IMG/VR virus record: IMGVR_UViG_3300037483_000925
Coordinates: 1-64,000 of that record
Direction: 5' to 3' (one strand)
Length of the DNA stretch: 64,000 bases
Source of the DNA: a virus
Taxonomy: Duplodnaviria; Caudoviricetes
A program made the position numbers and the translations under genes. Shown here piece by piece: positions 12,642-34,470 of the stretch. The notes below the pieces were generated by a model. That model ran no database searches. It had not been told where the DNA came from and worked only from the letters and a program-made list of their open reading frames with translations. Within the stretch, counting starts at the first letter, position 1, and every line of letters begins with the position of its first letter.

Positions 12642-13694
12642 CTACGCCGACGGCGAGGCCGACGGCGATACGCTCGGGCTCAGGCTCGGACTCAGACTCG
12701 GGCTGATGGACGGCGATACCGAGGGGCTGATGCTCGGGCTGATGGACGGCGATACCGAGGGGCTGATGCTCGGGCTGACCGACGGGGATGCGGAGCCACC
12801 CGGATGCCTGGTAATCTGAAGGTTGGTGTTAAGGGTATGGTGGAGACCATTGAAGCTCATCTCCACGGGAATGGGCTTCTCGTCATTGACCGGATTGTCA
12901 CCGGTGGTGTACTGGAGGTTGTTGATCAGCCAAGTGATGGCCAGGCCGGTGCTCCCGGTGATGAACCTGAGCGAGCTGGCCGTCTCGTTCAGGAACTTGT
13001 TGAGCATGGTCATGTCGGTGAAGAAGAAAGTGCCCTTGCCCTCGCACTTGGACCGCCCCCAGGAAATCTGCGGGGCGTACTTGCTCCCCACCACGAAATT
13101 GGCCTCCAGGCCATTGTCCAGGGTGAGGGTGATGGCCGAGCACAGGGCGTTGGCCACGCCGCCCTCGTAGATAGAGGCAGAGAAGGTATCCATCGGGGGA
13201 TTGGCCGAGGCCGAGTTGAAGGTCGAGCCCGCCGGCAGGGCCGCGGTCATGTTCGAGCCGATGAAACTGAGCTTGCCGGTGGCCATGCCGCTGGGCTTGA
13301 TGTCCAGGGACAGCTTGCTGGGGCTGCACCCGCTGAAGCACTCGTACTGGGTGATATCCGCGAACTTGCGCAGGATGCTGAAGCTGCGCTGGGTAACCCC
13401 CTGCCGCAGGACATCCCCGCTCCAGGTGCCGCCCATGAGGGCCTCCAGCATGTCGTCGAAGGCACTGTAGCTCAGCTCGAAGCCCACGTCCCCCTCCACC
13501 TTGTAGGTGCCCAGGCGGACGTCGGTGATGGCCCGGTCGGACCGGAGTTCCTTGCTCTCGAACTTGTCCCTCTTCAGACCCAGCGAGCAATCGGTGTGCC
13601 GGAAAGGGGTCCAGGCGGGATTGTCCGGAGTGGTGCCGTAGGTATCCTCTGCCACGTAATAGAGCCCGTGGTAACCGCCGCTTGCAAAAGGCAT
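12642..13694 (-). CDS. major tail tube protein with C-terminal (SPSX)12 tail
   Basis: YYVAEDTYGTTP...SKELRSDR...VEGDVGFELSY tail-tube pattern; synteny. Confidence 0.88.
   Translation of the reverse strand: MPFASGGYHGLYYVAEDTYGTTPDNPAWTPFRHTDCSLGLKRDKFESKELRSDRAITDVRLGTYKVEGDVGFELSYSAFDDMLEALMGGTWSGDVLRQGVTQRSFSILRKFADITQYECFSGCSPSKLSLDIKPSGMATGKLSFIGSNMTAALPAGSTFNSASANPPMDTFSASIYEGGVANALCSAITLTLDNGLEANFVVGSKYAPQISWGRSKCEGKGTFFFTDMTMLNKFLNETASSLRFITGSTGLAITWLINNLQYTTGDNPVNDEKPIPVEMSFNGLHHTLNTNLQITRHPGGSASPSVSPSISPSVSPSISPSISPSVSPSISPSLSPSLSPSVSPSASPSA
12645..12788 (-). repeat. coding repeat, 12 x Ser-Pro-Ser-X
   Basis: SPSV SPSI ... SPSA SPSA-stop; 12-bp periodicity with mixed Ser codons. 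Confidence 0.95.
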
Positions 13695-14908: not shown

Positions 14909-14911
14909 AAC

Positions 14912-15460: not shown

Positions 15461-16027
15461 TCAGCCCCTCTTGATGTCCATGGTGCTGCTGGACCTCAAC
15501 AAACCCCGAAGCCGGTTCGCCACGGCCTTGAACTCGGTCGTGGGCGAAGCCCCAGAGAAATACTCGAACTCAACCACGTCATACTTCTCCCGCTTCACCT
15601 GGCCCCCACGGTCCAGGTTCGGCTCCATGTCCTTGCCGGTGAGTATCAGCCAGGCACCCTCGCACTGGGCATTGATCACCTCGGCGGGAACCTCGCTAAT
15701 GCCGATCCAGTAGCCGTCCCGGTCCAGGACCCCGACCCAGTAGGTCTCGGGCTGGGTCAGGATGTTGATGTAGTTCCCCTCCCCGGCATCGCTCCCGTAC
15801 CTGGGCCAAGCCATGGGGTTGGACCTGTCGGTCTTGAACCCCCTGTACGGGAGGTCGTCCAGGTAGTCGGCCATCTTGACCAGGGCAGCCTTGATGACCT
15901 CGTCTCCGTAAACAGCGGTGTAGACCCGGCCCCTGTCATCACAATGGGTCTTGAAGTTGGCCAGGCTGACGTAGCTGTTGGCCCCGCTCACCACCGCCCC
16001 GGTCTCCACTGTGATTGTTATGGTCAT
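15461..16027 (-). CDS. head-tail adaptor (DnaT-like family)
   Basis: VETGAVVSGANSYVS, NPMAWPR, VKREKYDVVEFEYF motifs; start at 16027. Confidence 0.8.
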   Translation of the reverse strand: MTITITVETGAVVSGANSYVSLANFKTHCDDRGRVYTAVYGDEVIKAALVKMADYLDDLPYRGFKTDRSNPMAWPRYGSDAGEGNYINILTQPETYWVGVLDRDGYWIGISEVPAEVINAQCEGAWLILTGKDMEPNLDRGGQVKREKYDVVEFEYFSGASPTTEFKAVANRLRGLLRSSSTMDIKRG

Positions 16028-16155
16028 TTCTTCATTTTCCCTGTTCCAGCCATGGCTTCCTTGCTTTCCGGCATCCTGCCCATCTTCTGAATGCACTCGG
16101 TGGCCCCGGCCCCATGGTCAGGGGTTTTCATCGATTCGGCTGGCATCTTAGGCAT
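16024..16155 (-). CDS. small hypothetical protein (43 aa)
   Basis: Read manually, MPKMPAESMK...GKMKK; ATGA overlap with the adaptor gene. Confidence 0.4.
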   Translation of the reverse strand: MPKMPAESMKTPDHGAGATECIQKMGRMPESKEAMAGTGKMKK

Positions 16156-17134
16156 GTCCTTCATGTCTTTCATCATTTTCCATCTCCTTCAATTTTCTCA
16201 AGTCATCCTCGGCCCAACCCTTGACTGGCCAGAACTTCTCCACCAGCCAGGAGATTGGATGGACCCTATGCTCAAAGCCGCCATTCAGGAACTTATCCCA
16301 GGTCCGCCTCTTGGTCTCCAACTGGGCACCCCAGGACTGGGGATAGGGAAAGCTGAAATCCTTCCTGGTACGGAACATGTGGGCGTACCAGGTCCCATGG
16401 TACGCCAGCACCCGGCCGCCGCTGAGCCAGGTGGCACAGGCCACCTCGAGCCCCTGGTTGCCCCAGCTGCCCAGGGACTCGTCGCAGAGGGGCAAGGAGA
16501 AATACTTCTCCCTGGTGGCCATGAAGCAGGAACCCTGAAGGCTCATGGTCTCGGTGAACCCGGTCCTCCTAGCCTCCTTGGTCGAATCCCGGTGCTTGTA
16601 TTGCTCAAAATACTGAAAGTGAGGCTGGACATCAAAGCAATAGGACCAGCTCTGGGGATTCCTCTTGCCAATCCAGACCATCTTCCTTTTGATTCTCTCC
16701 CCGCCGCAGGCCTCACATCTCTCCGGCTTCGGCCCCTGGTAGACCTTCTTCCCGCAGCTATGGCACTTCCAATCGAAGGCCCAGAGATTACGCATGATCG
16801 GGACCATGGTCACATCATCCCCAGCCTGGGAGAATGCCTCCAACATCTTTCTGTCAAATCCCTTGTCGAAGGAGCAATGGGCATCACACTTCATCAAGTA
16901 ACGGCCCCGGGCCAGCTTGGCTGCCAGATTAGTGGCCGCCCTCTGGCCCACGGGCTCGGGGACATAGATCACGTTCACCCGGTCATCCTGCGGTATGCCA
17001 GGGTCGGCCCAGGCTCCGTCCAGGGTAGCGATGACTTCGGTATCCGCCTCGATATTCTCCAGGATGTCCTGAATAGTTCTGGCCAGGAACATCTCCTGCC
17101 GGGCGGGGATGAGTATCGACAAATCAGCCATCAA
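16148..17134 (-). CDS. glycosyltransferase family 2
   Basis: LSILIPARQE...VIATLDG...GQRAATNLAAKLARGRYLMKCDAH (GT-A, DxH). Confidence 0.9.
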   Translation of the reverse strand: MMADLSILIPARQEMFLARTIQDILENIEADTEVIATLDGAWADPGIPQDDRVNVIYVPEPVGQRAATNLAAKLARGRYLMKCDAHCSFDKGFDRKMLEAFSQAGDDVTMVPIMRNLWAFDWKCHSCGKKVYQGPKPERCEACGGERIKRKMVWIGKRNPQSWSYCFDVQPHFQYFEQYKHRDSTKEARRTGFTETMSLQGSCFMATREKYFSLPLCDESLGSWGNQGLEVACATWLSGGRVLAYHGTWYAHMFRTRKDFSFPYPQSWGAQLETKRRTWDKFLNGGFEHRVHPISWLVEKFWPVKGWAEDDLRKLKEMENDERHEGHA

Positions 17135-17795: not shown

Positions 17796-18265
17796 GACGA
17801 TAGATCCCTACTGTTGCTTACCACCGTCGTCCACGGCCTGCAAAACTTCCAGTGATAGATGTACTTGAAATGGGGGTAGACTTCACTGTAGCTGTAGTGG
17901 TCCGTCTCCGAATCATGAAGTACGATGAAATCGGCCTTGTCCGCCAGTCTCAACGCATCCGTCGCCCGGCGCTCCGTAACATGGTCAATGAAGGCCACAT
18001 CCCAATGCCTGCCAAGGTTCACCTTGGCCCAATCGTCAACCAGGAACACCCTGTGGTTCCTGCTCCGGAACCCGTTGGCGAACCTGAAGAACTCCTCCTG
18101 GTCCTCGTAAGTCTCCAGGCGGCGCCCGGACTCAGCACAGAGCCAGTGGAGTAGAGGCGTGCTGAATACCCCTGACCCCAGCTCCAGGACCGGGCCGCTG
18201 GTTATCTGAACCGCCCTGATGAGCGTGGGCATGTGGGTGGTGTAATCCTTCCTGAGAGTCATCAT
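17786..18265 (-). CDS. class I SAM-dependent methyltransferase-like protein
   Basis: VLELGSGVFST motif I, DVAFID, IVLHDS; start at 18265. Confidence 0.7.
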   Translation of the reverse strand: MMTLRKDYTTHMPTLIRAVQITSGPVLELGSGVFSTPLLHWLCAESGRRLETYEDQEEFFRFANGFRSRNHRVFLVDDWAKVNLGRHWDVAFIDHVTERRATDALRLADKADFIVLHDSETDHYSYSEVYPHFKYIYHWKFCRPWTTVVSNSRDLSSWD

Positions 18266-18855
18266 TTCTTTACCCAGAACCAGCTCGGCTTTTCGTCCCC
18301 GATACCGATGACATACCAGGGGGTTATTCCAAAGGCTCTGACATAGGCGTCCACCACCGGCCCCACCTGGCACCTGGAGGACAGGAAATAGTCGTGGCCG
18401 GAGACCACGCCCCCGGACCGGACCTTCCTGTCCCACCCGCATAGGTCCTGGGAGAAATCCTTGAATCCGTGATTGGCATCTATGTGGACGAAATCCAGAC
18501 TACCCTCCTCGAAATCATCCAAGGCCTCCATGGAGGTCTTCCTGAAAATCTCGCACTCGCACCCGACCAGGTTCGCCACGGCCGACCGATAGATGGCATT
18601 ACGCTTCCTCTGGTACATGGGGTCAACGGCCAAATGTTCAGGGGTGGCAAGCCAGGAATCGATGGCAAATACCATGAGCCCCGCCTCACACAACTTCTTG
18701 GAGAACCCGCCCTTGAATACCCCGATCTCCGCCCCCACGGCATAGCCCATGTCCCTGAAGAGCCGGGGCAGCTCATCCCGGGAGTGCCCGGGCAGCAGCC
18801 GGGGCGACTTCCTCCGGGTCAAGTCCTTGCGAGCCAACTCCTCCATGATGGTCAC
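18262..18855 (-). CDS. class I SAM-dependent methyltransferase (Methyltransf_24-like)
   Basis: GAEIGVFKG, LDFVHIDANH, GGVVSGHDY. Confidence 0.85.
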   Translation of the reverse strand: MTIMEELARKDLTRRKSPRLLPGHSRDELPRLFRDMGYAVGAEIGVFKGGFSKKLCEAGLMVFAIDSWLATPEHLAVDPMYQRKRNAIYRSAVANLVGCECEIFRKTSMEALDDFEEGSLDFVHIDANHGFKDFSQDLCGWDRKVRSGGVVSGHDYFLSSRCQVGPVVDAYVRAFGITPWYVIGIGDEKPSWFWVKK

Positions 18856-19502
18856 AGGTATCTCTCCCTCAATTCCCGACCGTTACCCCAGTAGGGAAGC
18901 TCCGGAATGTCCACCCTCTCCGAGTGGCTGTAGTGCCTCATTCCTCGCCCGGTCTTGATGGATACGCAGGGGTTCTCGGTCATGAACGGTTCATAGCTGT
19001 TGAAAAACTTCATCCTCTTCTCTTTGGGAAAGTTCTTCCTGGTCTCATCCCATTCGGGCTCCCCGTTAAGTAGCAGCCAAAGGCGGTCGATGTAGAACTC
19101 CCGATTAACGACCTGAGCCCAGGTACCACCCTCGGGCTTCCTCCAAAAGCAGTCCCGCTTATATCCCATCAGGTAGGTATTCCCATTCCGGTAGCAGGTA
19201 TCATCCCTCTCCGGCTGGAATAGGAAGTAGTCCGGAGGATAGAGGCAATCGGCCTCGGTCGAGATGATGAACCTGGTGTTGGCCGCCTCGCAGCCGATGA
19301 GTATCTGCCGGATCATATTGAACCCGGAAGTGCCGACTTCACCCACACAGATGTTCCTGCCAAAGCCGGTGGGCCTATGGGACACGCTGACAATAGGCAG
19401 GTCACCGCAATTCCCAAGAATGGTATTCTGGATCCTCCGCTCGAATTCCGGGGATTCCTTGTTGCTGGTGTAGTAGAGCACCGTGGCGTCAACGGATCCC
19501 AT
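18852..19502 (-). CDS. GT-A-like glycosyltransferase (TVLYY type, paralogue of 17124..17795)
   Basis: TVLYYTSN...PIVSVSHRP...ISTEADCLYP; start MGSVDA at 19502. Confidence 0.6.
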   Translation of the reverse strand: MGSVDATVLYYTSNKESPEFERRIQNTILGNCGDLPIVSVSHRPTGFGRNICVGEVGTSGFNMIRQILIGCEAANTRFIISTEADCLYPPDYFLFQPERDDTCYRNGNTYLMGYKRDCFWRKPEGGTWAQVVNREFYIDRLWLLLNGEPEWDETRKNFPKEKRMKFFNSYEPFMTENPCVSIKTGRGMRHYSHSERVDIPELPYWGNGRELRERYL

Positions 19503-20280
19503 GGCTCTCCAATATCCCCGCCAGCCCCTTGGTGACCAGAGGGTGGCCCATCTCGTTCCTGCCATGGACGCAGTAGGACATGTTGTCCTCACCGTTGTAC
19601 AAGGGCCGCCTATCAAACGGATGGAAATGGATCACCCTCAGGGGCTTCTCGGCCATAGCGTAGGCCTCGCCAACCAGGCGGCGCCTCGTGGCCAGGTTGT
19701 AGGTTATGTTCAACTTCCTGACCCGGTCCCTGATATGGCCGTACTTGCCCTTCTTGAGGGTTTCCAGTAACATGATCTCCTCATTGACCTTGTACCGGTA
19801 CATCTCCACCTTCAGTAGTTTGAAGATGTCCAGGGACCCGGACCGGAAGAATATGGTCCCTGTGCTCCATCTTTTGTCCCGGCCCCGGTTCAGGGAGGAC
19901 CGGCCATAGTCGGTGACCCCGATCTCGGAAGGGCCGATCCCCACCTCGGCCTCGTCAATGGAGGCGAGCTGGAAGGCATCAAGGTCATGGAACCAGTACA
20001 ATTCGTTATCCTCTATCAATCCCCGCTCAAATAAAGCAATAATGGCGTTGATCTTGCTGGCGGTGGGGGAATGCTCGCACCAGGCATCGTCCCCGATCTC
20101 CAGGGCTTTCACCCCCCTGTACTCGTAGGGGAAATTGGTTACCAGCCAGATATCATCCCTGACCCATCCCAGTCTGATGCTATTGTCTATCTGGACCCTG
20201 GCCAGGATGTCGGCCTCGTTCCCCCAGTCCAGGCCGGTGAACGCCTTCTTGGGGCTGATGTAGATCATCAGGTTCTTCAT
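19489..20280 (-). CDS. nucleotide-diphospho-sugar transferase-like (MKNLMIY type)
   Basis: YWFHDLDAFQ DxD motif, TGTIFF, NITYN, IHFHP; start at 20280. Confidence 0.6.
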   Translation of the reverse strand: MKNLMIYISPKKAFTGLDWGNEADILARVQIDNSIRLGWVRDDIWLVTNFPYEYRGVKALEIGDDAWCEHSPTASKINAIIALFERGLIEDNELYWFHDLDAFQLASIDEAEVGIGPSEIGVTDYGRSSLNRGRDKRWSTGTIFFRSGSLDIFKLLKVEMYRYKVNEEIMLLETLKKGKYGHIRDRVRKLNITYNLATRRRLVGEAYAMAEKPLRVIHFHPFDRRPLYNGEDNMSYCVHGRNEMGHPLVTKGLAGILESHGIR

Positions 20281-21188
20281 ACCCGTCTCACAAATATGTC
20301 CTGGTGACCCAGGTGAACCCACATGGAGTAGCGGTGGTTCCCATCCAGTATCCGGCCAGCGGCATCGACTATGATCGTCCTCTTGAGACCGTTGTCCTTG
20401 ACATCCTGGTACAGGGCCACCTTCCTCTCCACCCACCGGTTGAGGTAATCCTCGGTCCACTTGGCTCGGTATTTCTTCAATATCCGGTAGTAGCCAGTGT
20501 CCTTGTAATTCATACCGGAGTCGAGCTGCCCGTAGAACCGATCCTGGACATGGTTGCTGGAATCCAGGGAATCGACCGCCGCCCTGGCCACGGACCCGGA
20601 CCTAAAGCACAGGCTCCGCAGCTTGCGGGCATGCGGCCCAGCCTGGGGTAGGGCATCGATGAACCCGACCTCCTCCCAGTCCCGAAAGAAGCCCCTGATA
20701 TCGTCTATGTCGGATGAGGGGTGGCATCGGTTGAGAAATTTCTTCTCATCAGTCACGACGATGCAATAGGCGGTCTTGCGCCGGAGCCCGTCCAGGTAGT
20801 CCAGCCAGTCCTCAATCCTAAAATAATAATGGCTGTTGGCCAGAACGGTGTAGTCGGCCACGGGCAGGGAGTCAAGGGAATCCTCCATCCTGGCCTTGAT
20901 GATCCGGTAATTGCCGCCGTTCCTATCCCGCCATTCGATGCCCCGGGCCACGGCCTCGGAGCTGGAATCCACACCCACGGCGTCGAAGCCCCGGTCCTCG
21001 GCTAGCTTGAGAAACAGGCCGGCATTACAGCCCATATCCACCAGGATCAGACCGGAGGCATCCCCAGACAGAAACGGGGCCACGAAATTATTCCACTTGC
21101 CCTCATTCCAGAACGGGGACCCGAGCTCCTGGAAATCACGCTCAGTTTGAGGCACGTCCAGGCACTGGTATGTGGAGTATGCCTTCAT
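20277..21188 (-). CDS. class I SAM methyltransferase fused to a C-terminal ParB/Srx-like domain
   Basis: LVDMGCNAGLF...AVGVD N-terminally; IIVDAAGRILDGNHRY C-terminally; start MKAYST at 21188. Confidence 0.75.
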   Translation of the reverse strand: MKAYSTYQCLDVPQTERDFQELGSPFWNEGKWNNFVAPFLSGDASGLILVDMGCNAGLFLKLAEDRGFDAVGVDSSSEAVARGIEWRDRNGGNYRIIKARMEDSLDSLPVADYTVLANSHYYFRIEDWLDYLDGLRRKTAYCIVVTDEKKFLNRCHPSSDIDDIRGFFRDWEEVGFIDALPQAGPHARKLRSLCFRSGSVARAAVDSLDSSNHVQDRFYGQLDSGMNYKDTGYYRILKKYRAKWTEDYLNRWVERKVALYQDVKDNGLKRTIIVDAAGRILDGNHRYSMWVHLGHQDIFVRRV

Positions 21189-21799
21189 TCCTCCTCCAGG
21201 AAATCGGTCACGAAATGCCACTCGGCATCGGTCGGGACATTGAACAAATTGGCCAAGCACCGGCCCAAGTCATTGGAGGTGCCGTAGACGTGGCCGTGGA
21301 GCTTTAATAAATCAGCGGATAAGACAAAGGGCATATCAATGTTGTGCGAATACCGGTAGAATCTCCCGGTCCTTTCCATATGGGGCTTCGCCGGATCAAC
21401 CGCTCCCCACCAGCCCGCCTCATCCAGGGCCTGGACCGTGCCGCTGGACCATTTCCAATGCGGGGCGCAGAATCCCCTCTCGAACGGCAGGCCGTCCCTG
21501 CCAAATGCCTCCTCGATGGCCGGCATGATCTTCAGCTTCATGGTACCGTAGTCACAATTCCTGAACTCCGCCCCGTGGTGGTCGAAGCCGTGGGGGATGA
21601 TCTGAATCCAGTCTAGATTCTCCTTCACCCTGGCGAGCAGTTCATCCCTGATGAGGTACAGCCCAAAGTCCGCCCTCCTGTCCATCGGCACGGTAAACAG
21701 GGAGACCTTGAACCCGGGATAGCGGTCCTTGAGCGTCAGCAGCAGGTCCAGCCTGCTATTGACGACGCTGAAGTCGTGCAGGTCCAGACTGACCTTCAT
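21185..21799 (-). CDS. polysaccharide deacetylase-like (NodB/CE4 superfamily) protein
   Basis: LDLHDF, IIPHGFDH, GFCAPHW, KLHGH metal-binding pattern. Confidence 0.75.
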   Translation of the reverse strand: MKVSLDLHDFSVVNSRLDLLLTLKDRYPGFKVSLFTVPMDRRADFGLYLIRDELLARVKENLDWIQIIPHGFDHHGAEFRNCDYGTMKLKIMPAIEEAFGRDGLPFERGFCAPHWKWSSGTVQALDEAGWWGAVDPAKPHMERTGRFYRYSHNIDMPFVLSADLLKLHGHVYGTSNDLGRCLANLFNVPTDAEWHFVTDFLEEE

Positions 21800-22470
21800 A
21801 TCCTCTTCCTCATGGCGAACACCCGATGGCGCTTAGGATCGGTCTTTTCCTCGTTAAACCATTTGGCTAGCTTGGCCCTTATCCTTCCCCTCGGCCCGTG
21901 GATCTCGATGGAAACCTGGCCTATCCTTGACACCAGGCTGTCGTCCAGGTCCTTGACTATCCGGTGCTCGGCGCCCTCGCAATCCAACTTGAGGAGATCG
22001 CAATGGCCCGGGCAGTGGTCCCGGAACACCTCGTGGATGGAGATGGACTTGACAACCTGGAAGCTCCCCGGGTCCAGCCCCTCGATCAGGTCCGGGTATG
22101 CCGACGTGGCTCCGGAATTATGGGGATGGACAAAGAGCCTGGTCTCCCCGGGCTCGCCCACGGCCAAGTTCAGGCAATGAATCCGGTCCTTGAATCCGTT
22201 GACCTCCACATTATAGCACAGGACCTCGTAGTTGTAGGCCTCGGGCTCGAATGCCCAGACCTCGGCCCCGGCCCAGGCCGCCAGGATGGAAAAGGCCCCG
22301 ATATTGGCCCCAATATCAACCACCACCTTGGGGTTCTCCGGCAAACGGTAGTAATCCTCCCCGCCCAAAATCTCCTTGATGATCTTCTCGTCATGGTACC
22401 GGTACCGGGTCCGGAACTGGAACCCGAAGAAGCCCGTATCGTCATTCAGCGACCTGTCTACCCGATACAT
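21796..22470 (-). CDS. FkbM family methyltransferase
   Basis: VVDIGANIGAFS, VWAFEP, DLLKLDCEGAE. Confidence 0.92.
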   Translation of the reverse strand: MYRVDRSLNDDTGFFGFQFRTRYRYHDEKIIKEILGGEDYYRLPENPKVVVDIGANIGAFSILAAWAGAEVWAFEPEAYNYEVLCYNVEVNGFKDRIHCLNLAVGEPGETRLFVHPHNSGATSAYPDLIEGLDPGSFQVVKSISIHEVFRDHCPGHCDLLKLDCEGAEHRIVKDLDDSLVSRIGQVSIEIHGPRGRIRAKLAKWFNEEKTDPKRHRVFAMRKRI

Positions 22471-23168
22471 GATATCCCCGCCTCGGCAAATGCCTGCCTC
22501 AATCCCGGATTCATGGCCGCCGAAAACTTGCTCATGAGATAACCGCCCCGCTTCGTAGGATGAAAATGGAGCACTTTAATGGGTTTTTCCGCCTTCCTGA
22601 GATTAGACTCTACCCGGTGCATATTGATGTTATAGGCCACATCCAGGACCTTGTACCGACCGGGGGCGAGTCCTCCTTCCATCATCATCTCCAGGGCCGT
22701 CTCCTCCAGTACCTTCTTCTCATAGATGATTTCCCTCATGGACCCGAAGATGTCAGCGGCGCCTATCCCAAAAAACATGCTGCCGGTATTCAGCTTCCTG
22801 GACCAGCCAAGATCGGTCACCCCCAGGTCGCACATACCCAAGCCCAGGACATCCTTCGTGATGGGGCCGACCTGGAAGGCGTCAAAATCATGGTACCAAT
22901 AGATTCTGCCATCCTCCACCAATCCTCTCCTGAACAGGTCCACGATAACATTGATCTTGCTCATCCTACGGTCGAAAGTGCAGAAATTATCGTCATCCGC
23001 CCTCATGGCCCTAACCCTGCTGTACTCGTAGGGGAAATTGGTCACCAGCATGATATCCCCAGGCTCCCAGCCGAGGGTTAGGCTATTGTCTATCTGGACC
23101 CTGACAAGTTGGCTGTACTCACCCTCGAAGGCCCATCTGGGATTGATGTAGATCATCAGGTTCTTCAT
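22458..23168 (-). CDS. nucleotide-diphospho-sugar transferase-like (MKNLMIY type, paralogue of 19489..20280)
   Basis: YWYHDFDAFQ DxD motif, LNTGSMFF, EETAL, LHFHP. Confidence 0.6.
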   Translation of the reverse strand: MKNLMIYINPRWAFEGEYSQLVRVQIDNSLTLGWEPGDIMLVTNFPYEYSRVRAMRADDDNFCTFDRRMSKINVIVDLFRRGLVEDGRIYWYHDFDAFQVGPITKDVLGLGMCDLGVTDLGWSRKLNTGSMFFGIGAADIFGSMREIIYEKKVLEETALEMMMEGGLAPGRYKVLDVAYNINMHRVESNLRKAEKPIKVLHFHPTKRGGYLMSKFSAAMNPGLRQAFAEAGISCIG

Positions 23169-23782
23169 GTCCTATGCCTCACCACAATCAGGCAATCGTT
23201 CCTACGGCTCGGGGCGGTGAAGTTGATCCTCTCGCAGTCATAGTCCCCGTCCAGGCGTTCCAAAATGTACTCTGGAGTCCTCACATCCTCGATGATGTAG
23301 GTGACCGATTTCCAAAGCAGAGGCATCAGGGTCCGGCAGGCAAATACCTGGTTCCTCTTGAGGTGGCTGGCGTCATCCACCAGGAGGTCGATGTCCGGGC
23401 CGGTCTGGCCAATGAGCATCTCCAAGTCCTCGGCCTTCCTCTCATCCACGACGAATGTCCTGATCCGCTCGGCCTCCAGCATGGACGCTGGCTGAATGTC
23501 GGCCCCGTAGACCAGGGCATTGGAGAAGAAATCCCGCCACATCAGGAGGCTGGCCCCTTTCTGGTAGTATCTCTTCAAGTGTTTGTCATAGATGATTGAT
23601 ACGTGGTCCATGGTCTCGTCATAGCCGATGCCCAGCTCCAGGATCTTCCTAATGGACTCCCGCCGGCTGCTGAACATTTTATAATAGAACGGGGTGTAGC
23701 TATGCACCAGTTGGGGGCACTTGTCGGTCCCGTACTTGTAGGCGATGTCGCAGAGCTCGGTGGTCTGGATGTCGGCCTGCAT
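23165..23782 (-). CDS. sugar O-methyltransferase-like class I SAM enzyme
   Basis: YGTDK...HSYTPFY...ILELGIG...GASLLMWRDFF...VYGADI...IDLLVDDASH; start MQADIQ at 23782. Confidence 0.8.
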   Translation of the reverse strand: MQADIQTTELCDIAYKYGTDKCPQLVHSYTPFYYKMFSSRRESIRKILELGIGYDETMDHVSIIYDKHLKRYYQKGASLLMWRDFFSNALVYGADIQPASMLEAERIRTFVVDERKAEDLEMLIGQTGPDIDLLVDDASHLKRNQVFACRTLMPLLWKSVTYIIEDVRTPEYILERLDGDYDCERINFTAPSRRNDCLIVVRHRT

Positions 23783-24639
23783 CAGCAGTTCCCCCAAGTG
23801 GGCACGGGCGAGAACCTCTCTACCAGCCAGGACAGGGGATGGAGCATGCCCGGATCCCCGCCGTTGGTCCAGTGCCTCGCCGCCCACTCGTTCCCGGCCA
23901 GGGCCTGGGCATCCCCTTTGTGACGCCTGGAGAAGCCCCCTCCCAGGTAGTGGTGCCTGCGTTTGGACAGGTGGGCGTACCAAGTGTTCTTATTGACCTT
24001 GATCTCGCCGCCGCCCAGCCAGTACCTGAGCCCGATCTCCAGCTGGTCCCCGGAGAAGGGGCCGTAGGTCTCCGGCCTGTCGTCCAGGAGGCCCACCTGC
24101 TCAAGGAAATATCTTCGGTGGGCCAGCCAGAACGAACCCTGGAAGGCCATGGTCTCGTCCACGGCGATCCCCCGCCTGGCCCGGTCCCGGCTCTTCCATT
24201 CTCCCACGAACATGCCATATCCGGACTCGGATTCGACCGGGGCCGAGAAATAATGGTAGTCCCGGAAATACCTGGTGATCCTGGCCGGCTCCCAGGAATC
24301 CTCGTCCAGGGAATAGCGCCTGGGGATGATCAGGTGGCTGGGGGCCATGTCCCTGGTCAGGATGAAGTCGAACCCGGGGGCGAAGGCCACATGGGCATCG
24401 ACCTTGGCCACGAACTCCCCCTTGGCCGCCTCCAGGCCAGCATTGATGGCTCCCCTCATACCCCGGTTCCTTTTGAGGACGACGGGTTGGACCCTGGAGT
24501 CCTTGGGTAGGGGGCCGGGGTCATAGCCGTCGATCACCGGGATGACCTCGACCTCGCCAGCGGCGTTGGCCAGCAGGGAGTCAATGGTCCGGTTCAGGTA
24601 GGGCTCCTCGAAGGCCGGTATGATGATGCTGAGCTTCAT
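23782..24639 (-). CDS. glycosyltransferase family 2
   Basis: KLSIIIPAFEE...PVIDG...GMRGAINAG...AKVDAH. Confidence 0.9.
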   Translation of the reverse strand: MKLSIIIPAFEEPYLNRTIDSLLANAAGEVEVIPVIDGYDPGPLPKDSRVQPVVLKRNRGMRGAINAGLEAAKGEFVAKVDAHVAFAPGFDFILTRDMAPSHLIIPRRYSLDEDSWEPARITRYFRDYHYFSAPVESESGYGMFVGEWKSRDRARRGIAVDETMAFQGSFWLAHRRYFLEQVGLLDDRPETYGPFSGDQLEIGLRYWLGGGEIKVNKNTWYAHLSKRRHHYLGGGFSRRHKGDAQALAGNEWAARHWTNGGDPGMLHPLSWLVERFSPVPTWGNC

Positions 24640-24866
24640 TTGGGCCACTCCGTACAGACCAGTTCAATATCCCTGATCTCAGAAATCAAAGGAAAGGCCA
24701 TTAGGATTTTTCCATCTTTAGAATCGTATTTGATTATCTGACCGAAGGAGTCATCAGCGGCAATAATATGCTCATTGATAATCTCTCGTCCCGTAACCCT
24801 GTCAAATACCGTCCATGCCCAAGGATTAGGAATTCTGCCGCTTTCATCTCTCATATCTACTCTCAT
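24636..24866 (-). CDS. hypothetical protein (AT-rich insert in the GT cluster)
   Basis: 76 aa from MRVDMRD, ATGA overlaps on both sides. Confidence 0.5.
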   Translation of the reverse strand: MRVDMRDESGRIPNPWAWTVFDRVTGREIINEHIIAADDSFGQIIKYDSKDGKILMAFPLISEIRDIELVCTEWPK

Positions 24867-25669
24867 AATCCCCACCTTGGCCTGATCACGGCCTCGTAAT
24901 AGTCCCGCCACACTTTCAAACAATATGCCCCGCTGTCCACGGTATTGGCCGGGTTCTCCTTGGTTCCATTGTTATGGGTCCGGGAGAAGGAACGATGCTT
25001 ATGGGCAAACCAAGTATTCTTGTTAAGCACCAGCTTGCCCCCGGCCTGCCAGGTCTTGAAAACCATCTCGTGTGAGTCCTGGGTCAGGGGTCCGTAGCCC
25101 TCGGTCTGGAGCTCCCCGATCACGTCCAGCCACCACTGCCAGGGCATGACCCAACAGGACCCCTGCATGGCCATGGTTTGGTCTATCATCTTATGGGCAT
25201 TGGCCTTGTCTCGGGCAGGCCACCTGACTCCGGAGAACTTCTGAGGTCCGCCCTCGGGACCCTGGATGGCCAGCCTCTCGTAATCGACGTGGGGGTGATC
25301 CTGCATCACCTCCCACCTGACCGGATCCAGGAAGAATCTCCGGGCGGTCATGATCCAATTATGACGGCAGGACTCGACCATGATGCGGTCGAAACCCTGG
25401 GCAAACATGCAGTGCTCATCAGTTCGACAAATAAACTCGCCACGGGCCACGGAAACCCCGGCATTGATAGCAGCCCTCATGCCCCGGTTCCGGCCCAGGT
25501 GGACGTACCGGACCCGGGGGTCCTGCACTAAATCAAACTCTGGCCAGTAGCCATCGAGCACAGCAATGACCTCAAGTCGATCCCCGAGCTCGGAGGTGGC
25601 CAAGATAGAATCAATGGTCCTGGCCAGCAATGGGTCCTTATAACTCGGGATGATGACTGACAGTTTCAT
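24863..25669 (-). CDS. glycosyltransferase family 2
   Basis: KLSVIIPSYKD...AVLDG...GMRAAINAG...CRTDEH; start at 25669. Confidence 0.9.
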   Translation of the reverse strand: MKLSVIIPSYKDPLLARTIDSILATSELGDRLEVIAVLDGYWPEFDLVQDPRVRYVHLGRNRGMRAAINAGVSVARGEFICRTDEHCMFAQGFDRIMVESCRHNWIMTARRFFLDPVRWEVMQDHPHVDYERLAIQGPEGGPQKFSGVRWPARDKANAHKMIDQTMAMQGSCWVMPWQWWLDVIGELQTEGYGPLTQDSHEMVFKTWQAGGKLVLNKNTWFAHKHRSFSRTHNNGTKENPANTVDSGAYCLKVWRDYYEAVIRPRWGL

Positions 25670-25758
25670 ATAATTTTCCTTCCTTCCTTCCGGCTCTCCT
25701 TGCTGGAGATCAGGTAGGAGGCGCGGCCGTCCCGGGTCTGGGGGTGCTGACGGCTCAT

Positions 25759-29169: not shown

Positions 29170-29170
29170 T

Positions 29171-30220
29171 TTAGGCCACTATCCCAATGGACCTTTCGGG
29201 CCGGAAAAAGATGGTGTCTGCGGTGATAACATCCGCCACATTTTGAATAACCTGAGTAGATACTGCCGGAACCGTCTGCTGCATAGCACCAGCGGTAGTT
29301 ACACTCAGCCAGAGTTGGGTTAACAGACCGGACCCGGCTACGCCCCAATTCCACCCAGCTACGTTCGTAACATGGCCGGAGTAGATGAAATCTCCAGAGG
29401 CATCAGCCAGAATCCCGCCAGCGTTTACGCACATAACGATGGCTGGGCAGGTAGTCGTGGCTCCAGCATCCCCGATAGCCTTCTTAAATTTTCTCACCCC
29501 ACCGCTGAACCAAGCGTAACAAATTTCGCCAAAAGCCAGGTTCTCCCCAGCCACTCCAGTAAAGGGAGGGTCGCTAGTAGTCTGGTCAGCAGGAGCAATG
29601 TCAATGGCGATGTCTAACTTTGCGTCAAGCTGGGTCTGGATGGCAGAAGTAACGCCATTGCTATAGCCTATCTCTGTGGCATCAGGCGCACTTGCCCCAC
29701 CCAACCGTCCCTCAAGGCTGGGATTAATCAACACCCAGGCGGTGCCGTTGTATTCCAGGTAGCAGAGATAATTAGCAGCGGGAATATCCCCGGCCACTAG
29801 AGCGGTGCTGGCATACTTGACAATGGCCTTGGTAGTCAGACCGTTAGGGGTGAAGGTCACAGCCCCGGTATTGGCCCCTGCCGCCACCAGAGTTACCCGG
29901 GTGCCGTTGGTAAGGGTGACTGCCGGGGAATAAGTCGCGGTGATCGCATCGACCGTGCCGCCCGCCGCCGCGGTAGGAAGGCCGGGGGCGTAGTCGGTCC
30001 AGGGAGTTGCCGCAGTACCATTTCCTGCCCCATCACCCTTAAGTATGGCCGAGGTAGAAGAAATAGTGGCCCCGCCAAGGACTGTTAGAAGATTGGTCAA
30101 GGTAACTATCTTGGGTTCGTAATCTGACTCCGAGTCCCATACAAGAAACAGATCATTGCCAATGGGTGTCACCTTGGCCGTATATTTGGAATAACTCTTC
30201 GGCAGTGGCTTGGGATACAT
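29171..30220 (-). CDS. fibre protein, probable head fibre
   Basis: TEIGYSNGVTSAIQTQLDAK trimeric fibre motif; C-terminal GENLAFGEICY...KAIGDA domain resembling capsid-cement folds. Confidence 0.6.
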   Translation of the reverse strand: MYPKPLPKSYSKYTAKVTPIGNDLFLVWDSESDYEPKIVTLTNLLTVLGGATISSTSAILKGDGAGNGTAATPWTDYAPGLPTAAAGGTVDAITATYSPAVTLTNGTRVTLVAAGANTGAVTFTPNGLTTKAIVKYASTALVAGDIPAANYLCYLEYNGTAWVLINPSLEGRLGGASAPDATEIGYSNGVTSAIQTQLDAKLDIAIDIAPADQTTSDPPFTGVAGENLAFGEICYAWFSGGVRKFKKAIGDAGATTTCPAIVMCVNAGGILADASGDFIYSGHVTNVAGWNWGVAGSGLLTQLWLSVTTAGAMQQTVPAVSTQVIQNVADVITADTIFFRPERSIGIVA

Positions 30221-30231
30221 GATCTTCCTCC

Positions 30232-30723
30232 TTACCAGGGACTGAAGCCGAACATGAACTTCAGATCGGAGACCCCGGCATAGGTCGGCGTGCCTGTGGT
30301 CTTAACCAAGGCATACACAGTGCTCTTGTCATCGGCCTTGACTACCTTATCGATGCCGGTCAAAGTAGCCACTGCGCTGTCGGCGGAATCCACGTAGTCC
30401 CCGGCATCGACCTCGATCACGCCCAGGCAATCGAGCATGTCCGTGTCATGGATGTCCAATGCCGAGTTGTCGGTATAGGTCCCAGCATCGGGATCGGCCT
30501 TAAAGAAGAATATCTTGAGAGCGGCCTTCTGGGCAGCAAGGTCCTGGACGGTAATAGACAACAACTTGCCCATGCCTTCCCTGATGGATGCCAGGGCCAA
30601 GGCCAGGGTCAATTTGCCGCCGATGCAGTCATTGGCGGAATAGGCTCCAGCGGTGATTGCCGGGGTGACTTCAATGAGGGTGGGTCTTAATTCGAGAAGT
30701 TGATTGATTCTTTGCAGGCTCAT
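30232..30723 (-). CDS. probable virion structural protein
   Basis: AGAYSANDCIGG...TPTYA; beta-rich, in head module. Confidence 0.55.
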   Translation of the reverse strand: MSLQRINQLLELRPTLIEVTPAITAGAYSANDCIGGKLTLALALASIREGMGKLLSITVQDLAAQKAALKIFFFKADPDAGTYTDNSALDIHDTDMLDCLGVIEVDAGDYVDSADSAVATLTGIDKVVKADDKSTVYALVKTTGTPTYAGVSDLKFMFGFSPW

Positions 30724-30798
30724 TTCGTAGACCTCCATTCAGACCCCAAGAGGGGTCAGTGGTTGAAGTCCTTGGGTGTCTGAATATAGGCCACGGCT

Positions 30799-31062
30799 TT
30801 AAGCTCCGGCCTTGGGCACCGCCTGGGGGACCCGGGGCGGGGCAGAAATCGGGGGAGGCGGCGGCCCGGGGGCCGGGGGAACCTCCTCGTCATAGTCCAT
30901 CTCCCTCAGTAACTCAATGGCCTCGGGGTCGTCGGTCTCGCACTCCAGGAAGCCGGATGGCCCCCGGGCGAACTCGAACAGTGCTCGCTCGTCCTTCCAG
31001 ATGACTGCCGGCAGCATGTGCTTTGGATGGGTCCTGTTGGTGGCCTTATAGAATTTGGCCAT
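30799..31062 (-). CDS. hypothetical protein with Pro-rich C-terminus
   Basis: 87 aa with AGGAAGG RBS. Confidence 0.6.
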   Translation of the reverse strand: MAKFYKATNRTHPKHMLPAVIWKDERALFEFARGPSGFLECETDDPEAIELLREMDYDEEVPPAPGPPPPPISAPPRVPQAVPKAGA

Positions 31063-31120: not shown

Positions 31121-31951
31121 TTAGGCCGAAGGGCTCGCGCTCGGGCTGACCGAAGGGCTCAGGCTCGGGCTTTCGCTCGGGCTTATACTTGGTGAAATTG
31201 AGGGGCTCAGGCTTGGGCTCAAACTCGGGCTGGGCGAGGGACTCAAGCTCGGGCTTGGACTTGGGCTTTCGCTTGGGCTTATACTCGGCGATATCGAGGG
31301 ACTCAATGACGGACTAGCCGAGGGCGATGTACTCGGACTTGCGCTTGGACTGAAGCTCGGACTCAGGCTTGGGCTGGGCGATGGGCTCAGGCTTGGCGAG
31401 GCCGAAGGCGATGCACTCGGGCTTATGCTCGGAGAGATCGACGGGCTCAAGCTGGGGCTGGGTGACGGGCTCAGGCTCTGACTCACGCTCTGCGCACTCG
31501 TGGCCGCAGTGGTGATGCTGATGACGCAGGTCTTCTGCGACGCCGTATAGCCCAGGATGGTGGCCTGGGCGATGGTCAGGGTCACAGCCTCGCCATTAAG
31601 CCAGGATGCTGCGTCACCGGATACCACCACTGAGGCCACACCCTCGACAAAGGTCAATGTCGTGGACGGGATGGTTGCGGTCCCGGCAGTGCTGGTATCC
31701 GCCACGGAGACGCCAGTGGCGATGGCCTTGTTGAACCAGGTATGGACCTTCCCGGCAGCGGTCTGGAGCTCTATGAAGACGGTCTTGGTCCAAGCTGCCT
31801 CGGTGGCCACGTGATTGTACAAAGCCGGGGACACCACGAACAGCAGATCCCCCGACAGCGCCTTGGCAAACAGGGCCAGCTGATCCCGACTGGCAGGCTT
31901 CAGGCCCAGGTCCAGGCTGGGAGCGGGGGGCTTTTGCGTTCCTCTTGCCAT
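31121..31951 (-). CDS. capsid decoration-like protein with (SPSX)29 tail
   Basis: Paralogue of 31964..32530 (MARGTQ...VHTWFNKAIA), downstream of the major capsid gene. Confidence 0.75.
   Translation of the reverse strand: MARGTQKPPAPSLDLGLKPASRDQLALFAKALSGDLLFVVSPALYNHVATEAAWTKTVFIELQTAAGKVHTWFNKAIATGVSVADTSTAGTATIPSTTLTFVEGVASVVVSGDAASWLNGEAVTLTIAQATILGYTASQKTCVISITTAATSAQSVSQSLSPSPSPSLSPSISPSISPSASPSASPSLSPSPSPSLSPSFSPSASPSTSPSASPSLSPSISPSISPSESPSPSPSLSPSPSPSLSPSLSPSISPSISPSESPSLSPSVSPSASPSA
31124..31471 (-). repeat. coding repeat, 29 x Ser-Pro-Ser-X
   Basis: Counted from the translation; ends SPSV SPSA SPSA-stop. Confidence 0.95.
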
Positions 31952-31963
31952 GATCCCCCTCCT

Positions 31964-32530
31964 TTAGGCCGACGGGCTGGCGCTCGGGCTGGCCGAGGGG
32001 CTTTCCGACGGACTCTTGCTCGGACTGGCGCTCGGGCTCAGGCTGGGACTGGCACTCGGGCTCTTGGACGGACTCAGGCTATGGGTGACGACGGTGATCA
32101 CGCCGGTGGAGGCCGCGGTCACGGTATAGCCCAGGATGGTGGCCGAGGCCACGGTTACGGTGACCTTCTCACCGACGAGCCAGGCTGCGGCGTCGCCGGA
32201 TACCACCACAGCAGCAACGCCGTTGACAAAGGTCAGGGTGGTCGAATCCAGGGAAGCCGTACCCGCATCACTGGTATCGCCTATGGACACCCCGGAGGCA
32301 ATGGCCTTGTTGAACCAGGTATGGACCTCGCCTTCGGCGGTCTGCAATTCAACGTAGAATGTCTCGGTCCAGGCGGCGGCCGTGGCCACCAGCACGTCGG
32401 TGGCCGGGTAGATCACCAGGGACATGTCACCGGCCATGGCCTTGGAGTACAGGGTGAGCTGATCCCTCAGCGCGGGCTTGAGCCCAAGATCAATGTCCGG
32501 GCTCGGGGGGGTCTGGGTTCCTCTTGCCAT
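31964..32530 (-). CDS. capsid decoration-like protein with (SPSX)9 tail
   Basis: Immediately after the major capsid gene; paralogue of 31121..31951. Confidence 0.75.
   Translation of the reverse strand: MARGTQTPPSPDIDLGLKPALRDQLTLYSKAMAGDMSLVIYPATDVLVATAAAWTETFYVELQTAEGEVHTWFNKAIASGVSIGDTSDAGTASLDSTTLTFVNGVAAVVVSGDAAAWLVGEKVTVTVASATILGYTVTAASTGVITVVTHSLSPSKSPSASPSLSPSASPSKSPSESPSASPSASPSA
31967..32074 (-). repeat. coding repeat, 9 x Ser-Pro-Ser-X
   Basis: SPSK SPSA SPSL SPSA SPSK SPSE SPSA SPSA SPSA-stop. Confidence 0.95.
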
Positions 32531-32597
32531 GATACCTACCTCCTCAGGCTGCGGGCGGGGCCTGGGCTACCAGGCCCCCACCAAGCAGTAAGATATT

Positions 32598-33557
32598 TTA
32601 ACTGGTGGTCAGGCCGGTGATGGTCCCGTGGTACTCCTCGGGGCCGTGGTCAAGGCCGATCTGGCCGTAGATCATCTCGGTGTCGGCGGCGCCGGTCTTG
32701 GACAGGACGTCCCGGAACAGGACCCCCTTGTTGGGCACCGGGCAGAACACCGGCTTGCAGACGCTCAGCTCGGCCACTAGCATCGTGTCGGTGGGCATGA
32801 ACGGAGCCCAGACGATGCCCAGCATACCGAAGTCCATCTCGATCTGCTTGATGTTCACCCCGCCCACGTTCCGATCGTCCGGGGCGTAGCCGTAGATGTT
32901 GGTCAGTTTCTGCTTCTGGAAGGCGTTGACGAAAATGACCGCGTTCTGGAACAGGGAACCGTTGCCCGCCATGGTCCGGAATAGCTGGTCGCACAGGTCC
33001 TTGGTCAGGGGGGCGGTGCCTGCGGCCACGGTGTTCGTGGTGCAGGCGGAGACCATGCCCCGGCTCTTGGCCGCTACTGCGGCGGAGGTGGCCTGCTGGT
33101 AGGTGCCCTGGAGGAAGGTATACTCGATATCTACGGCCACCTGCTGGAGCGTGGCCGCGGCCTGCCAGTCCATCTCGTTTCCCACGGGCTGGGGTCCCAG
33201 CATCACGTTCCCGGCCCCGGACACGTACACGGTCCCGGTCACGGACTGTTTGGCGTAGGACGCGCTGATGGTCTTCTCGAAGATTTGGACGGTGTTGACG
33301 TCCTGGCCCCTCACGTAGGACTTGAGGTAGGTGGAGGCCGTCAGAGACGCGGTCTCGGTGATGGCCGGCTGGGCCGCCGTCTCCAAGGACCAGGGCTGGG
33401 CCACGGGGAACTCGAATGCCTGGACGGTGGCGATGGCCCCACCCTGGAGCCCGCCGATCATGTTTAGGAACGGGGTCTTGATGGCCCCGATCAAATACAA
33501 TTCCCCGACAAAGTTGGGGACATTCCATACGGTCGCGGCAGCGCTTACATTTGCCAT
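32598..33557 (-). CDS. major capsid protein (HK97 fold, SU10/DUF5309-like)
   Basis: TPFLNMIGG, NTVQIFEKTIS, DIEYTFLQG, EMIYGQIGLDHG; follows scaffold. Confidence 0.88.
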   Translation of the reverse strand: MANVSAAATVWNVPNFVGELYLIGAIKTPFLNMIGGLQGGAIATVQAFEFPVAQPWSLETAAQPAITETASLTASTYLKSYVRGQDVNTVQIFEKTISASYAKQSVTGTVYVSGAGNVMLGPQPVGNEMDWQAAATLQQVAVDIEYTFLQGTYQQATSAAVAAKSRGMVSACTTNTVAAGTAPLTKDLCDQLFRTMAGNGSLFQNAVIFVNAFQKQKLTNIYGYAPDDRNVGGVNIKQIEMDFGMLGIVWAPFMPTDTMLVAELSVCKPVFCPVPNKGVLFRDVLSKTGAADTEMIYGQIGLDHGPEEYHGTITGLTTS

Positions 33558-33600: not shown

Positions 33601-34470
33601 TCAACCGGTGAAGGTCGGGTCCTCCTTGAAGATCGCGTTCTTGAGGGCGACCATGGCCACCGTATTACCCCTGGTCTTGGCCTCGGTATACTGGTCCTTC
33701 ATGGTCTGGAGGGCGTTCCTCGGCCCCGAGGCGGCTCCGCCTCCGGCACCGCTGCCCGAGGCCTGGGAGCCTTTAAGCATCAGCTTGCTATTCGGGTGCG
33801 AGCGGATCAGCACCTCGATGGCCTCCTCTGGGGAGGCAAGCACCCTGGGATTGGAGGGGGAGTAGATCTCCTCGCCGTTGACCTTGGCCACCACCACGGG
33901 GTCGCCGCCGTTCTCGGCAGGCACGACCTCGAAGGCGTTCCCGAACATGGTATAGAGCACCTCCGGGAAATAGTTCTCGGCCACGGACTCCTTGATGAAC
34001 TGGGAGGCTTCGAAGGCGCCCCGGACCATCAGGTTGCGGATGACCCGGTCCTGGTTCCCGGTCCGGGCCTCGAAGTCCACCAGCTTAGTCTTGTAGTCGG
34101 CGTCCAGGTTCCCGTACTTGGTCTCCCAGGCCTTGTTGACCTCGTCAATGGCCTTCTGCTTGAGCTGCTCCACCTTGCCCGCCTCCACGAATTGCTTGTC
34201 CTCGTAGTTGGCGACGGTGGCCAGCGCCTCCTTGGCCTTCTCGGCATCCAGCCCCTCGAACGGGGTGGCGGCCTCCTCCAATTCCTTGATCCGGATGCGG
34301 TACTTCCCGGCCTCGTTGTTGGCCTCGGTGATCTGCGCACGCAGCCTCACCACGTCCTGGCCGGTCTCCATCCCCTTGTCGTCGACCCATACGGGGTTCC
34401 CCGCCTGGTCCAGGACCGCCAAGCTGACCTTGGCCCCCTCGATCTCGATCTCCTGTAGTTTCCAAGGCAT
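33601..34470 (-). CDS. capsid scaffolding protein
   Basis: GNPVWVDDKG N-terminus, coiled coil, ASPEEAIEVLI...GSGAGGG C-terminus. Confidence 0.8.
   Translation of the reverse strand: MPWKLQEIEIEGAKVSLAVLDQAGNPVWVDDKGMETGQDVVRLRAQITEANNEAGKYRIRIKELEEAATPFEGLDAEKAKEALATVANYEDKQFVEAGKVEQLKQKAIDEVNKAWETKYGNLDADYKTKLVDFEARTGNQDRVIRNLMVRGAFEASQFIKESVAENYFPEVLYTMFGNAFEVVPAENGGDPVVVAKVNGEEIYSPSNPRVLASPEEAIEVLIRSHPNSKLMLKGSQASGSGAGGGAASGPRNALQTMKDQYTEAKTRGNTVAMVALKNAIFKEDPTFTG

Follow-up and report, generated by a model that had tools for sequence, protein, structure and literature searches.

Ser-Pro-Ser-X repeat tails on putative head-surface proteins of an uncultured tailed phage and their genomic coupling to a GalNAc-transferase-like enzyme

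We analyzed a window of 64,000 nucleotides, the first 64 kb of the linear IMG/VR virus record IMGVR_UViG_3300037483_000925 (Duplodnaviria; Caudoviricetes; 84,046 bp, estimated to be 75% complete; GC content of the window, 58%), in which two neighboring genes, here called A and B, encode paralogous proteins ending in tandem repeats of the four-residue unit Ser-Pro-Ser-X (SPSX). A regular-expression scan found 29 uninterrupted units in A (residues 161-276, 116 amino acids) and nine in B (residues 153-188, 36 amino acids), and the tail tube protein of the same phage carries 12 more; all three arrays finish in SPSASPSA, directly followed by the stop codon. At the variable position X, the tail of A has L, I, A, P, F, T, E or V, and the tail of B has A, K, L or E. 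Consecutive [ST]P[ST]x units, even as few as two, were found nowhere else in any frame of the whole record. The initial annotation of the window, made from the letters alone, had described the tandem paralogues behind the capsid gene, the number of their repeats and the length of their tails, the invariant S-P-S with its variable fourth residue, and the terminus shared with the tail tube, and in each of these respects it was exact. On the minus strand, the genes run from the scaffolding protein through the SU10-type major capsid protein to B and then A, the start codon of A lying 12 nt past the stop codon of B and being preceded by an AGGAGG site. These are followed by a small Pro-rich open reading frame (ORF), ORFs of 168, 349 and 711 amino acids, about 13 enzyme genes (27.0-16.1 kb), the head-tail adaptor, the tail terminator, the tail tube, the tail chaperone, and a long ORF that is presumed to be the tape measure. 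A scan for terminators and promoters around A and B returned nothing useful. The coordinates are given in Table 1.

The codons of the repeats are informative with respect to the level at which the arrays are maintained. S-P-S is invariant across the 50 units of A, B and the tail tube, despite varying codons. In the 29-unit array, the first serine is encoded by five codons from both the AGY and TCN families, the second serine by four codons, and the proline by four codons; the codons for S, P or S are unlike in 68% of the unit pairs, and all these differences are synonymous. Such mixing of AGY and TCN codons for serine means that it is the peptide that selection maintains. The scrambled codons, together with the invariant S-P-S, rule out chance or a DNA-repeat artefact as the origin of the arrays. 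Copying of the shared terminus between genes as a DNA cassette is ruled out as well, given that SPSASPSA is written with TCG in the tail tube gene and with AGC in the head genes. It should be noted that the reverse complement of an SPSX array is itself an open frame, rich in Gly, Leu, Asp and Ala. Two plus-strand ORFs of the window (31557-31814 and 31742-32620) were rejected as true genes and are considered shadow frames of the repeats, because the minus-strand proteins have 246 homologues and a confidently modeled fold (see below). Public gene calls place short wrong-strand genes over the arrays in the window and in related contigs (L249, 10660-11136; L251, 8584-8853; L255, 14500-19300), and in L255, two array-bearing ORFs of 924 and 1131 amino acids were missed by these calls. 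Array-bearing proteins are therefore under-represented in protein databases.

Over 149 residues, the N-terminal domains of A and B share 66% identity (E = 1e-71). A model of residues 1-152 of B, built from 46 homologues (predicted local distance difference test, pLDDT, of 92), consists of a flexible N-terminal arm, a helix (19-32) and an immunoglobulin (Ig)-like beta-sandwich (34-152), in agreement with the shared beta-rich domain expected from the initial reading. The structural matches of this model include Ig-like accessory domains of GH2 enzymes (Z up to 11), intimin/invasin domains (Z 8-8.6) and BIG2-type viral proteins; no sequence match to the domain was found in Pfam (including Big_2 and other Ig families), PHROGs or PDB. 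The family has at least 246 members, mostly of about 140 amino acids and without a tail. In at least 50 loci, the Ig-like gene lies directly behind an SU10-type capsid gene, often as two or three tandem paralogues, and no host or prophage relative was found in 185,579 species genomes. Judging by gene position and the modeled fold, it is plausible that A and B are accessory head-surface (decoration) proteins. An alternative is that they represent some other component of the head module, i.e., a fiber base, an assembly factor or a non-virion protein, so that the tails would be displayed elsewhere. The lack of sequence matches in the three databases fits this alternative, as does the generic character of an Ig-like fold whose best matches are glycosidase and intimin domains. 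However, it does not account well for the recurrent position behind the capsid gene, or for the small size and N-terminal arm that the family shares with accessory Ig-like head proteins; in addition, a similar tail is found on a cement-like or virion-structural protein (phrog_1731) of an unrelated phage that encodes the same glycosyltransferase (see below). We consider this alternative unlikely, albeit worth keeping in mind. For the third carrier, the tail tube, relatives in cultured phages end at residue 298, ahead of the position where the array is found here.

The same operon contains, between the head and the adaptor genes, an island of about 10 kb with three family 2 glycosyltransferases (GT2a, GT2b and GT2c, 16148-25846, minus strand), all with a DxH motif rather than the usual DxD, and several methyltransferases. 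Twenty island proteins were scanned against Pfam, NCBIfam and PHROGs, and the only families recovered were GT2 and methyltransferases; one of the proteins, u236, had no match among PDB sequences. Because transmembrane segments are absent from all island proteins, the entire pathway is predicted to operate in the cytoplasm.

GT2a, encoded about 6 kb downstream of A and B, is a soluble enzyme of 264-271 amino acids with an invariant D87-E88-H89. Members of its family have 259-293 amino acids, contain PF00535 alone, and reach a maximum 19-residue hydropathy of 0.83; a search for orthologues gave 2,550 matches. The best PDB sequence match of the family profile is human GalNAc-T4 (E = 2.3e-7), a polypeptide N-acetylgalactosaminyltransferase (ppGalNAc-T). 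In this alignment, the DxH motif falls on DCH of GalNAc-T4, a downstream histidine is aligned ('fah'/'vgh'), and E-M-x-F-K-T-W-x-x-GGKL of GT2a corresponds to E-L-S-F-R-V-W-Q-C-GGKL, with QDSHE replacing WGGEN. The role of the DxH motif in GalNAc-transferases has been described (PMC4202792). For the model of GT2a (pLDDT 93), the top 50 Foldseek matches in PDB were all ppGalNAc-Ts (E = 4e-15; TM-score for the query, TMq, 0.63-0.73). VIA-align superimposed the model on GalNAc-T1 with Z = 24.6 and a root-mean-square deviation of 2.9 over 253 of 271 residues, and on TgGalNAc-T3 with Z = 23.8, whereas other GT-A enzymes did not exceed Z = 20.6 in a representative-wide scan, in which bacterial GT2 enzymes scored three to four units below the two ppGalNAc-Ts. 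According to the profile and the modeled fold, GT2a is a remote homologue of the mucin-type polypeptide GalNAc-transferases (family GT27), and with this homology, the label 'mucin-like', applied to the tails from the start, turned out to be apt.

We then considered the association in the reverse direction, fetching IMG/VR viral contigs by homology to GT2a alone (59 loci, 54-74% identity). At least three consecutive SPSX units were present in ORFs of 47 of these 59 loci, always on the strand of the glycosyltransferase gene and with up to 121 units, and two more loci had degenerate SSSX arrays. None of the 59 loci encodes a homologue of the capsid, Ig-like, tube or scaffold proteins of this phage, and the arrays are attached to domains of at least 45 unrelated clusters. 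The control consisted of 80 Ig-like loci of similar size, only one of which contained an array (Fisher P = 1.6e-24). The initial annotation had suggested searching for a linkage between such arrays and glycosyltransferase genes, and the linkage is evident in these counts; its proposal that the tails are the substrate of a modifying enzyme rather than a simple linker gains strong comparative support from this co-occurrence and from the predicted fold of GT2a. A separate DNA-pattern scan of viral contigs for SPS codons yielded mostly off-frame or simple (SP)n matches, with true arrays only in L103, L105 and L108, the last of which has a GT2a/b-like gene on the same strand. Of 2,593 SPSX units from the GT2a loci, 77% have V, L, I or A as X, and the degenerate SSSX arrays retain an aliphatic fourth position. 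With these residues predominating, one face of an array is all Ser and the other Pro/aliphatic, and a structural role of the arrays alongside glycosylation may be possible.

Orthologues of GT2a were also found in species genomes (L315-L361, GTDB, 45-70% identity), mostly in metagenome-assembled genomes (MAGs) of Patescibacteria, also known as the candidate phyla radiation (CPR). The Patescibacteria bins include three near-complete chromosomes of 0.74-0.94 Mb; further bins are from two DPANN archaea and about 15 low-GC genomes auto-labeled 'uncultured Gammaproteobacteria'. There are hints here that many phages with GT2a and SPSX arrays infect ultra-small bacteria.

Within the capsid lineage of this phage, SPSX tails of varying length are present on about 15 of the 120 best Ig-like homologues, and untailed and tailed Ig-like paralogues are mixed in L081, L209, L249/L250, L251/L252 and the JGI contig of P0014. 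These same five, which are all the SPSX-bearing relatives whose contigs extend far enough downstream, each have an orthologue of GT2a (70-77% identical). Between these phages, GT2a is 73-75% identical, compared to 58-67% for the capsid protein. In 49 viral records with untailed Ig-like homologues, seven of which are at least 90% complete, no GT2 scored over the Pfam cut-off, and no SPSX array was found in records of this kind except L001. The nearest relatives, L205 and L001/L207 (major capsid protein 82-84% identical), have untailed paralogues and have kept an SPSX array on a stand-alone mini-protein, which amounts to a partial loss of the trait. This mini-protein, which is absent from the record under study, consists of a helix of about 25 amino acids (SHARMIELLEEMCSRL-like) and a long SPSX array, and nothing else (L001, 11395-11670; L205, ~10940-11320; L081, 12386-12610; L209, ~1000-1250; L251, ~8510-8986). 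Its gene is located just ahead of the GT2a gene or the adaptor gene, and among the conceivable roles of the product are those of a carrier, a decoy or a small bristle bound to the capsid.

Long internal arrays are found in a member of the capsid clade, L255 (JGI 3300037810 contig), in which the proteins encoded at 14091-16862 and 16866-20258 contain 110 and 114 SPSX units, respectively, between globular ends. The sequences suggest that these giant proteins are probably long glycosylated stalks or fibers. Their genes are adjacent and are sited between the fiber genes and the adaptor gene; the glycosylation island of L255 is about 12 kb long and includes an extra DegT aminotransferase and acetyltransferases. 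The arrays of L255 bear on one part of the initial annotation that did not hold, namely the interpretation of the identical SPSASPSA terminus as a recognition tag. This interpretation is unsupported because the arrays of relatives end otherwise, in SPSE, SPST, SPSL, SPSV or SPS, and because long arrays of 110-120 units are internal, lying between globular domains; the different codons for the terminus in the tube and head genes also count against it. These arrays indicate that function resides in the repeat as such, which doubles as a long stalk.

Taking these observations together, we find it fairly probable that the SPSX arrays are acceptor modules for a phage-encoded, mucin-type-like O-glycosylation in the cytoplasm and that their Ig-like carriers sit outside the capsid; the particle would then probably be coated with sugars. 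The proposed sequence of events is as follows: (i) GT2a, through its DxH metal site, would add the first sugar to the serines of an array, with GT2b and GT2c helping or following; (ii) elongation and methylation of the glycan, before the particle is assembled or in the course of it, would fall to the neighboring transferases and to four to five methyltransferases; (iii) paralogues A and B, most likely located on the capsid exterior, would display glycopeptide bristles of 116 and 36 amino acids on the head, and each tube subunit would contribute a bristle of 48 amino acids. The arrays, their maintenance at the protein level, the motifs and modeled fold of GT2a, and its genomic coupling to the arrays are shown by the data. 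The glycosylation of the serines, the identity of the sugar, the binding of the Ig-like domain to the capsid, and the purpose of the coat, which might be shielding, colloidal stability or adhesion, are what we infer from the genes and models.

Several observations weigh against glycosylated arrays and should be considered together. The case for them is one of gene association and predicted fold. In the capsid-protein tree, the SPSX-bearing phages form one group (Shimodaira-Hasegawa-like approximate likelihood-ratio test, SH-aLRT, 84), implying one change; because the trait is on a single branch, the link between array and GT2a in the capsid lineage is essentially one evolutionary event. L205 and L001/L207 have no glycosyltransferase at this site, on contigs of only 12-17 kb. 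Of 47 GT2a loci in species genomes, at least three SPSX units occur within 10 kb in only nine, and Ser-rich arrays of any kind in about 15-18, which is still above the control (P = 5e-4). GT2a has neither the ricin-type lectin domain nor the membrane anchor of GT27 enzymes, and it lacks their WGGEN core, so the enzyme resembles the GT27 catalytic domain yet is no regular member of that family. Furthermore, DNA and host envelope glycans are other possible substrates of phage glycosyltransferases, and the arrays of 110-120 units between globular domains in many GT2a loci would fit a pure spacer.

In an alternative, the arrays are unmodified, extended, flexible spacers or entropic bristles, and the glycosyltransferase island has another target, such as the DNA of the phage, further proteins of the virion or glycans of the host envelope. 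The long arrays joining globular domains in L255 and elsewhere, the SPSX mini-protein without an adjacent glycosyltransferase in L001 and L205, and the majority of MAG loci without a nearby array are all expected if this is the case. What it leaves unexplained is why arrays and GT2a co-occur on unrelated backbones at 47 of 59 loci versus one of 80, why the partner GT-A enzyme is closest to the peptide-acting GalNAc-transferases, and why Ser and Pro are invariant while their codons are scrambled; moreover, the island proteins lack the membrane segments associated with lipid-linked envelope glycan work, and the island is placed inside the morphogenesis operon. We regard unmodified spacers as improbable. 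Still less credible is a self-assembling rod, sheet or oligomeric stalk whose structure would dictate the register, with glycosylation absent or secondary: the amphipathic pattern, the strict register across hundreds of residues and the aliphatic position retained in SSSX arrays are compatible with it, but X in the window is also K, E, P or T, the nine-unit tails have free ends, a proline at every fourth residue disfavors regular sheets, and the link to GT2a is left unexplained.

Beyond this phage, we lean slightly toward a broader interpretation of the acceptor function, in which SPSX arrays and GT2a constitute a widespread, previously undescribed system of mucin-type O-glycosylation in phages, its modules fused independently onto dozens of virion proteins, and the GT2a family is a lectin-less relative, in viruses of prokaryotes, of the mucin-initiating GT27 enzymes of animals; the two propositions stand together at this modest level of confidence. 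The carriers would possibly include decoration proteins, tail tubes, fibers and free mini-proteins, and phages of Patescibacteria would possibly be among the users.

The remaining genes of the region are listed in Table 1 or described here. Directly behind the Ig-like genes, a small ORF (30799-31062, minus strand) has a Pro/Ala-rich C-terminus (PPAPGPPPPP...), and this ORF is kept in L001 (10463-10858, AAAPAAAPAAPPPKRRR), L205, L206 and L209. Between the Ig-like genes and the enzyme island, the ORFs of 168, 349 and 711 amino acids (27034-30738, minus strand) carry no SPSX array and matched nothing in Pfam or PHROGs; from where they lie, they may encode head or neck fibers, and the 168-residue protein has a homologue in L249.

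Table 1. Features of the window discussed in the text (positions in the 64,000-nt window).
Feature	Position	Strand	Basis
Paralogue A, 276 aa, Ig-like domain and C-terminal (SPSX)29; putative head-surface protein	31121..31951	-	ORF call; 66% identical to B
(SPSX)29 array of A, 116 aa, 58 Ser, SPSASPSA end	31124..31471	-	regular-expression scan; codons scrambled
Paralogue B, 188 aa, Ig-like domain and C-terminal (SPSX)9; putative head-surface protein	31964..32530	-	ORF call; model
(SPSX)9 array of B, 36 aa, SPSASPSA end	31967..32074	-	regular-expression scan
Major capsid protein, SU10 type, without SPSX tail	32598..33557	-	PF17236, E 6.4e-61; phrog_1328
Head scaffolding protein	33601..34470	-	phrog_206/phrog_784, DUF6651
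Tail tube protein; C-terminal (SPSX)12 (12645-12788) after GG linker	12642..13694	-	PF18906, E 3.5e-42, residues 11-281
GT2a, soluble GT-A glycosyltransferase, ppGalNAc-T-like; proposed initiating enzyme	24863..25678	-	PF00535; DEH motif; profile and fold matches
GT2b, GT2a paralogue, DAH motif	23782..24648	-	PF00535; 36% identical to L081 GT2a orthologue
GT2c, third DxH GT-A enzyme	16148..17134	-	PF00535; DAH84 and W..GGR motif
Methyltransf_24 methyltransferase	18262..18855	-	PF13578; homologue accompanies GT2a in 37/59 loci
Methyltransferase-like gene	23165-23983	-	
u236	22458-23168	-	homologue in 19/59 GT2a loci
FkbM methyltransferase	21796-22470	-	
204-aa ORF, enzyme-cluster gene	within 20277..23983	-	
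SAM methyltransferase	20277-21260	-	
Head-tail adaptor (DnaT_2-like), end marker of glycosylation island	15461..16096	-	PF20557, E 1.9e-34

To our knowledge, mycobacteriophages are the only phages for which virion glycosylation by phage-encoded enzymes has been demonstrated, and there is reportedly little evidence of virion glycosylation in non-mycobacteriophages. A full-text literature search found no paper joining phages with GT27-like enzymes or Ser-Pro-Ser arrays. If our interpretation is true, many environmental phages glycosylate their virions by means of another enzyme family, one that comes with a dedicated repeat as acceptor, and many uncultured phages have sugar-coated capsids, tails or stalks. 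This would change how phage surfaces are understood in relation to adsorption, aggregation and grazing, and to recognition by lectins or the immune system. In that case, mucin-like glycopeptides could also be made with a compact, soluble system of the bacterial cytoplasm (a tag of 36 amino acids and an enzyme of 270 amino acids), and the origin of GT27 enzymes could be studied in a relative from viruses of prokaryotes.

Comparison with known systems shows partial similarities to several of them. The arrays differ from the hydroxyproline-rich glycoproteins of plants and algae in that scans of the island proteins found no 2OG-Fe(II) (2-oxoglutarate- and iron-dependent) oxygenase family and hence no match to a prolyl 4-hydroxylase. 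The serine-rich repeat glycoproteins of Gram-positive bacteria (GspB, Fap1 and SraP) are, as summarized in PMC6973325 and PMC7948813, glycosylated in the cytoplasm by GtfA/GtfB ahead of their export through an accessory Sec system and anchoring in the cell wall. The predicted glycoproteins of this phage would resemble them, as far as those summaries go, in long arrays with Ser at alternating positions and in a fibrillar glycoprotein surface; in contrast to them, neither a GT4 (GT-B) GtfA/GtfB pair nor an accessory Sec system was found in the scans of the 20 island proteins. The putative head proteins are similar to Ig-like accessory domains of other phages (T4 Hoc-type and BIG2-type) in being a small beta-sandwich encoded beside the capsid gene, and the tail tube is similar to other tail tubes with external C-terminal additions, the difference being that the addition here is a repeat array and not an Ig domain.

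In mycobacteriophages, phage enzymes glycosylate the C-termini of exposed virion proteins, namely capsid and tail tube subunits (Freeman et al. 2023, Cell Host Microbe 31:1216, as reported in PMC12619734 and PMC11600133); according to the same two reports, Che8, Corndog and Myrna are such virion-glycosylating phages, and cluster O phages add an O-methyltransferase. The phage studied here is comparable to these, to the extent that they are described there, in that its glycosyltransferases (three with PF00535, together with methyltransferases, 16.1-25.8 kb) are phage-encoded in or near the structural module, and in that the C-terminus of the tail tube is a putative acceptor, its glycosylation being predicted from genes alone. 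The differences are substantial: (i) Che8 gp6 and gp11 have short, non-repetitive ends (...KTGS and ...YSDGS), whereas the arrays here have 36-116 amino acids; (ii) the capsid protein here is untailed, and separate Ig-like paralogues carry the arrays; (iii) the island is far larger here, with about 13 genes, and GT2a is without a mycobacteriophage homologue, a tblastn search of 50,697 GenBank phage records at E 1e-3 having returned only two partial GT-A matches, neither of them in a mycobacteriophage.

The enzyme itself is closest to the GT27 ppGalNAc-Ts, with which GT2a shares the GT-A fold, the DxH motif and the E..F..W..GGKL stretch; unlike these enzymes, it has neither lectin domain nor membrane anchor, does not conserve WGGEN, and would act in the bacterial cytoplasm. 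A similar relationship holds for the acceptors. Unlike mucin repeats, the arrays have a strict four-residue unit in which S-P-S is without Thr; like mucins, they repeat a Ser-rich motif that contains Pro, and they would give rise to a dense brush.

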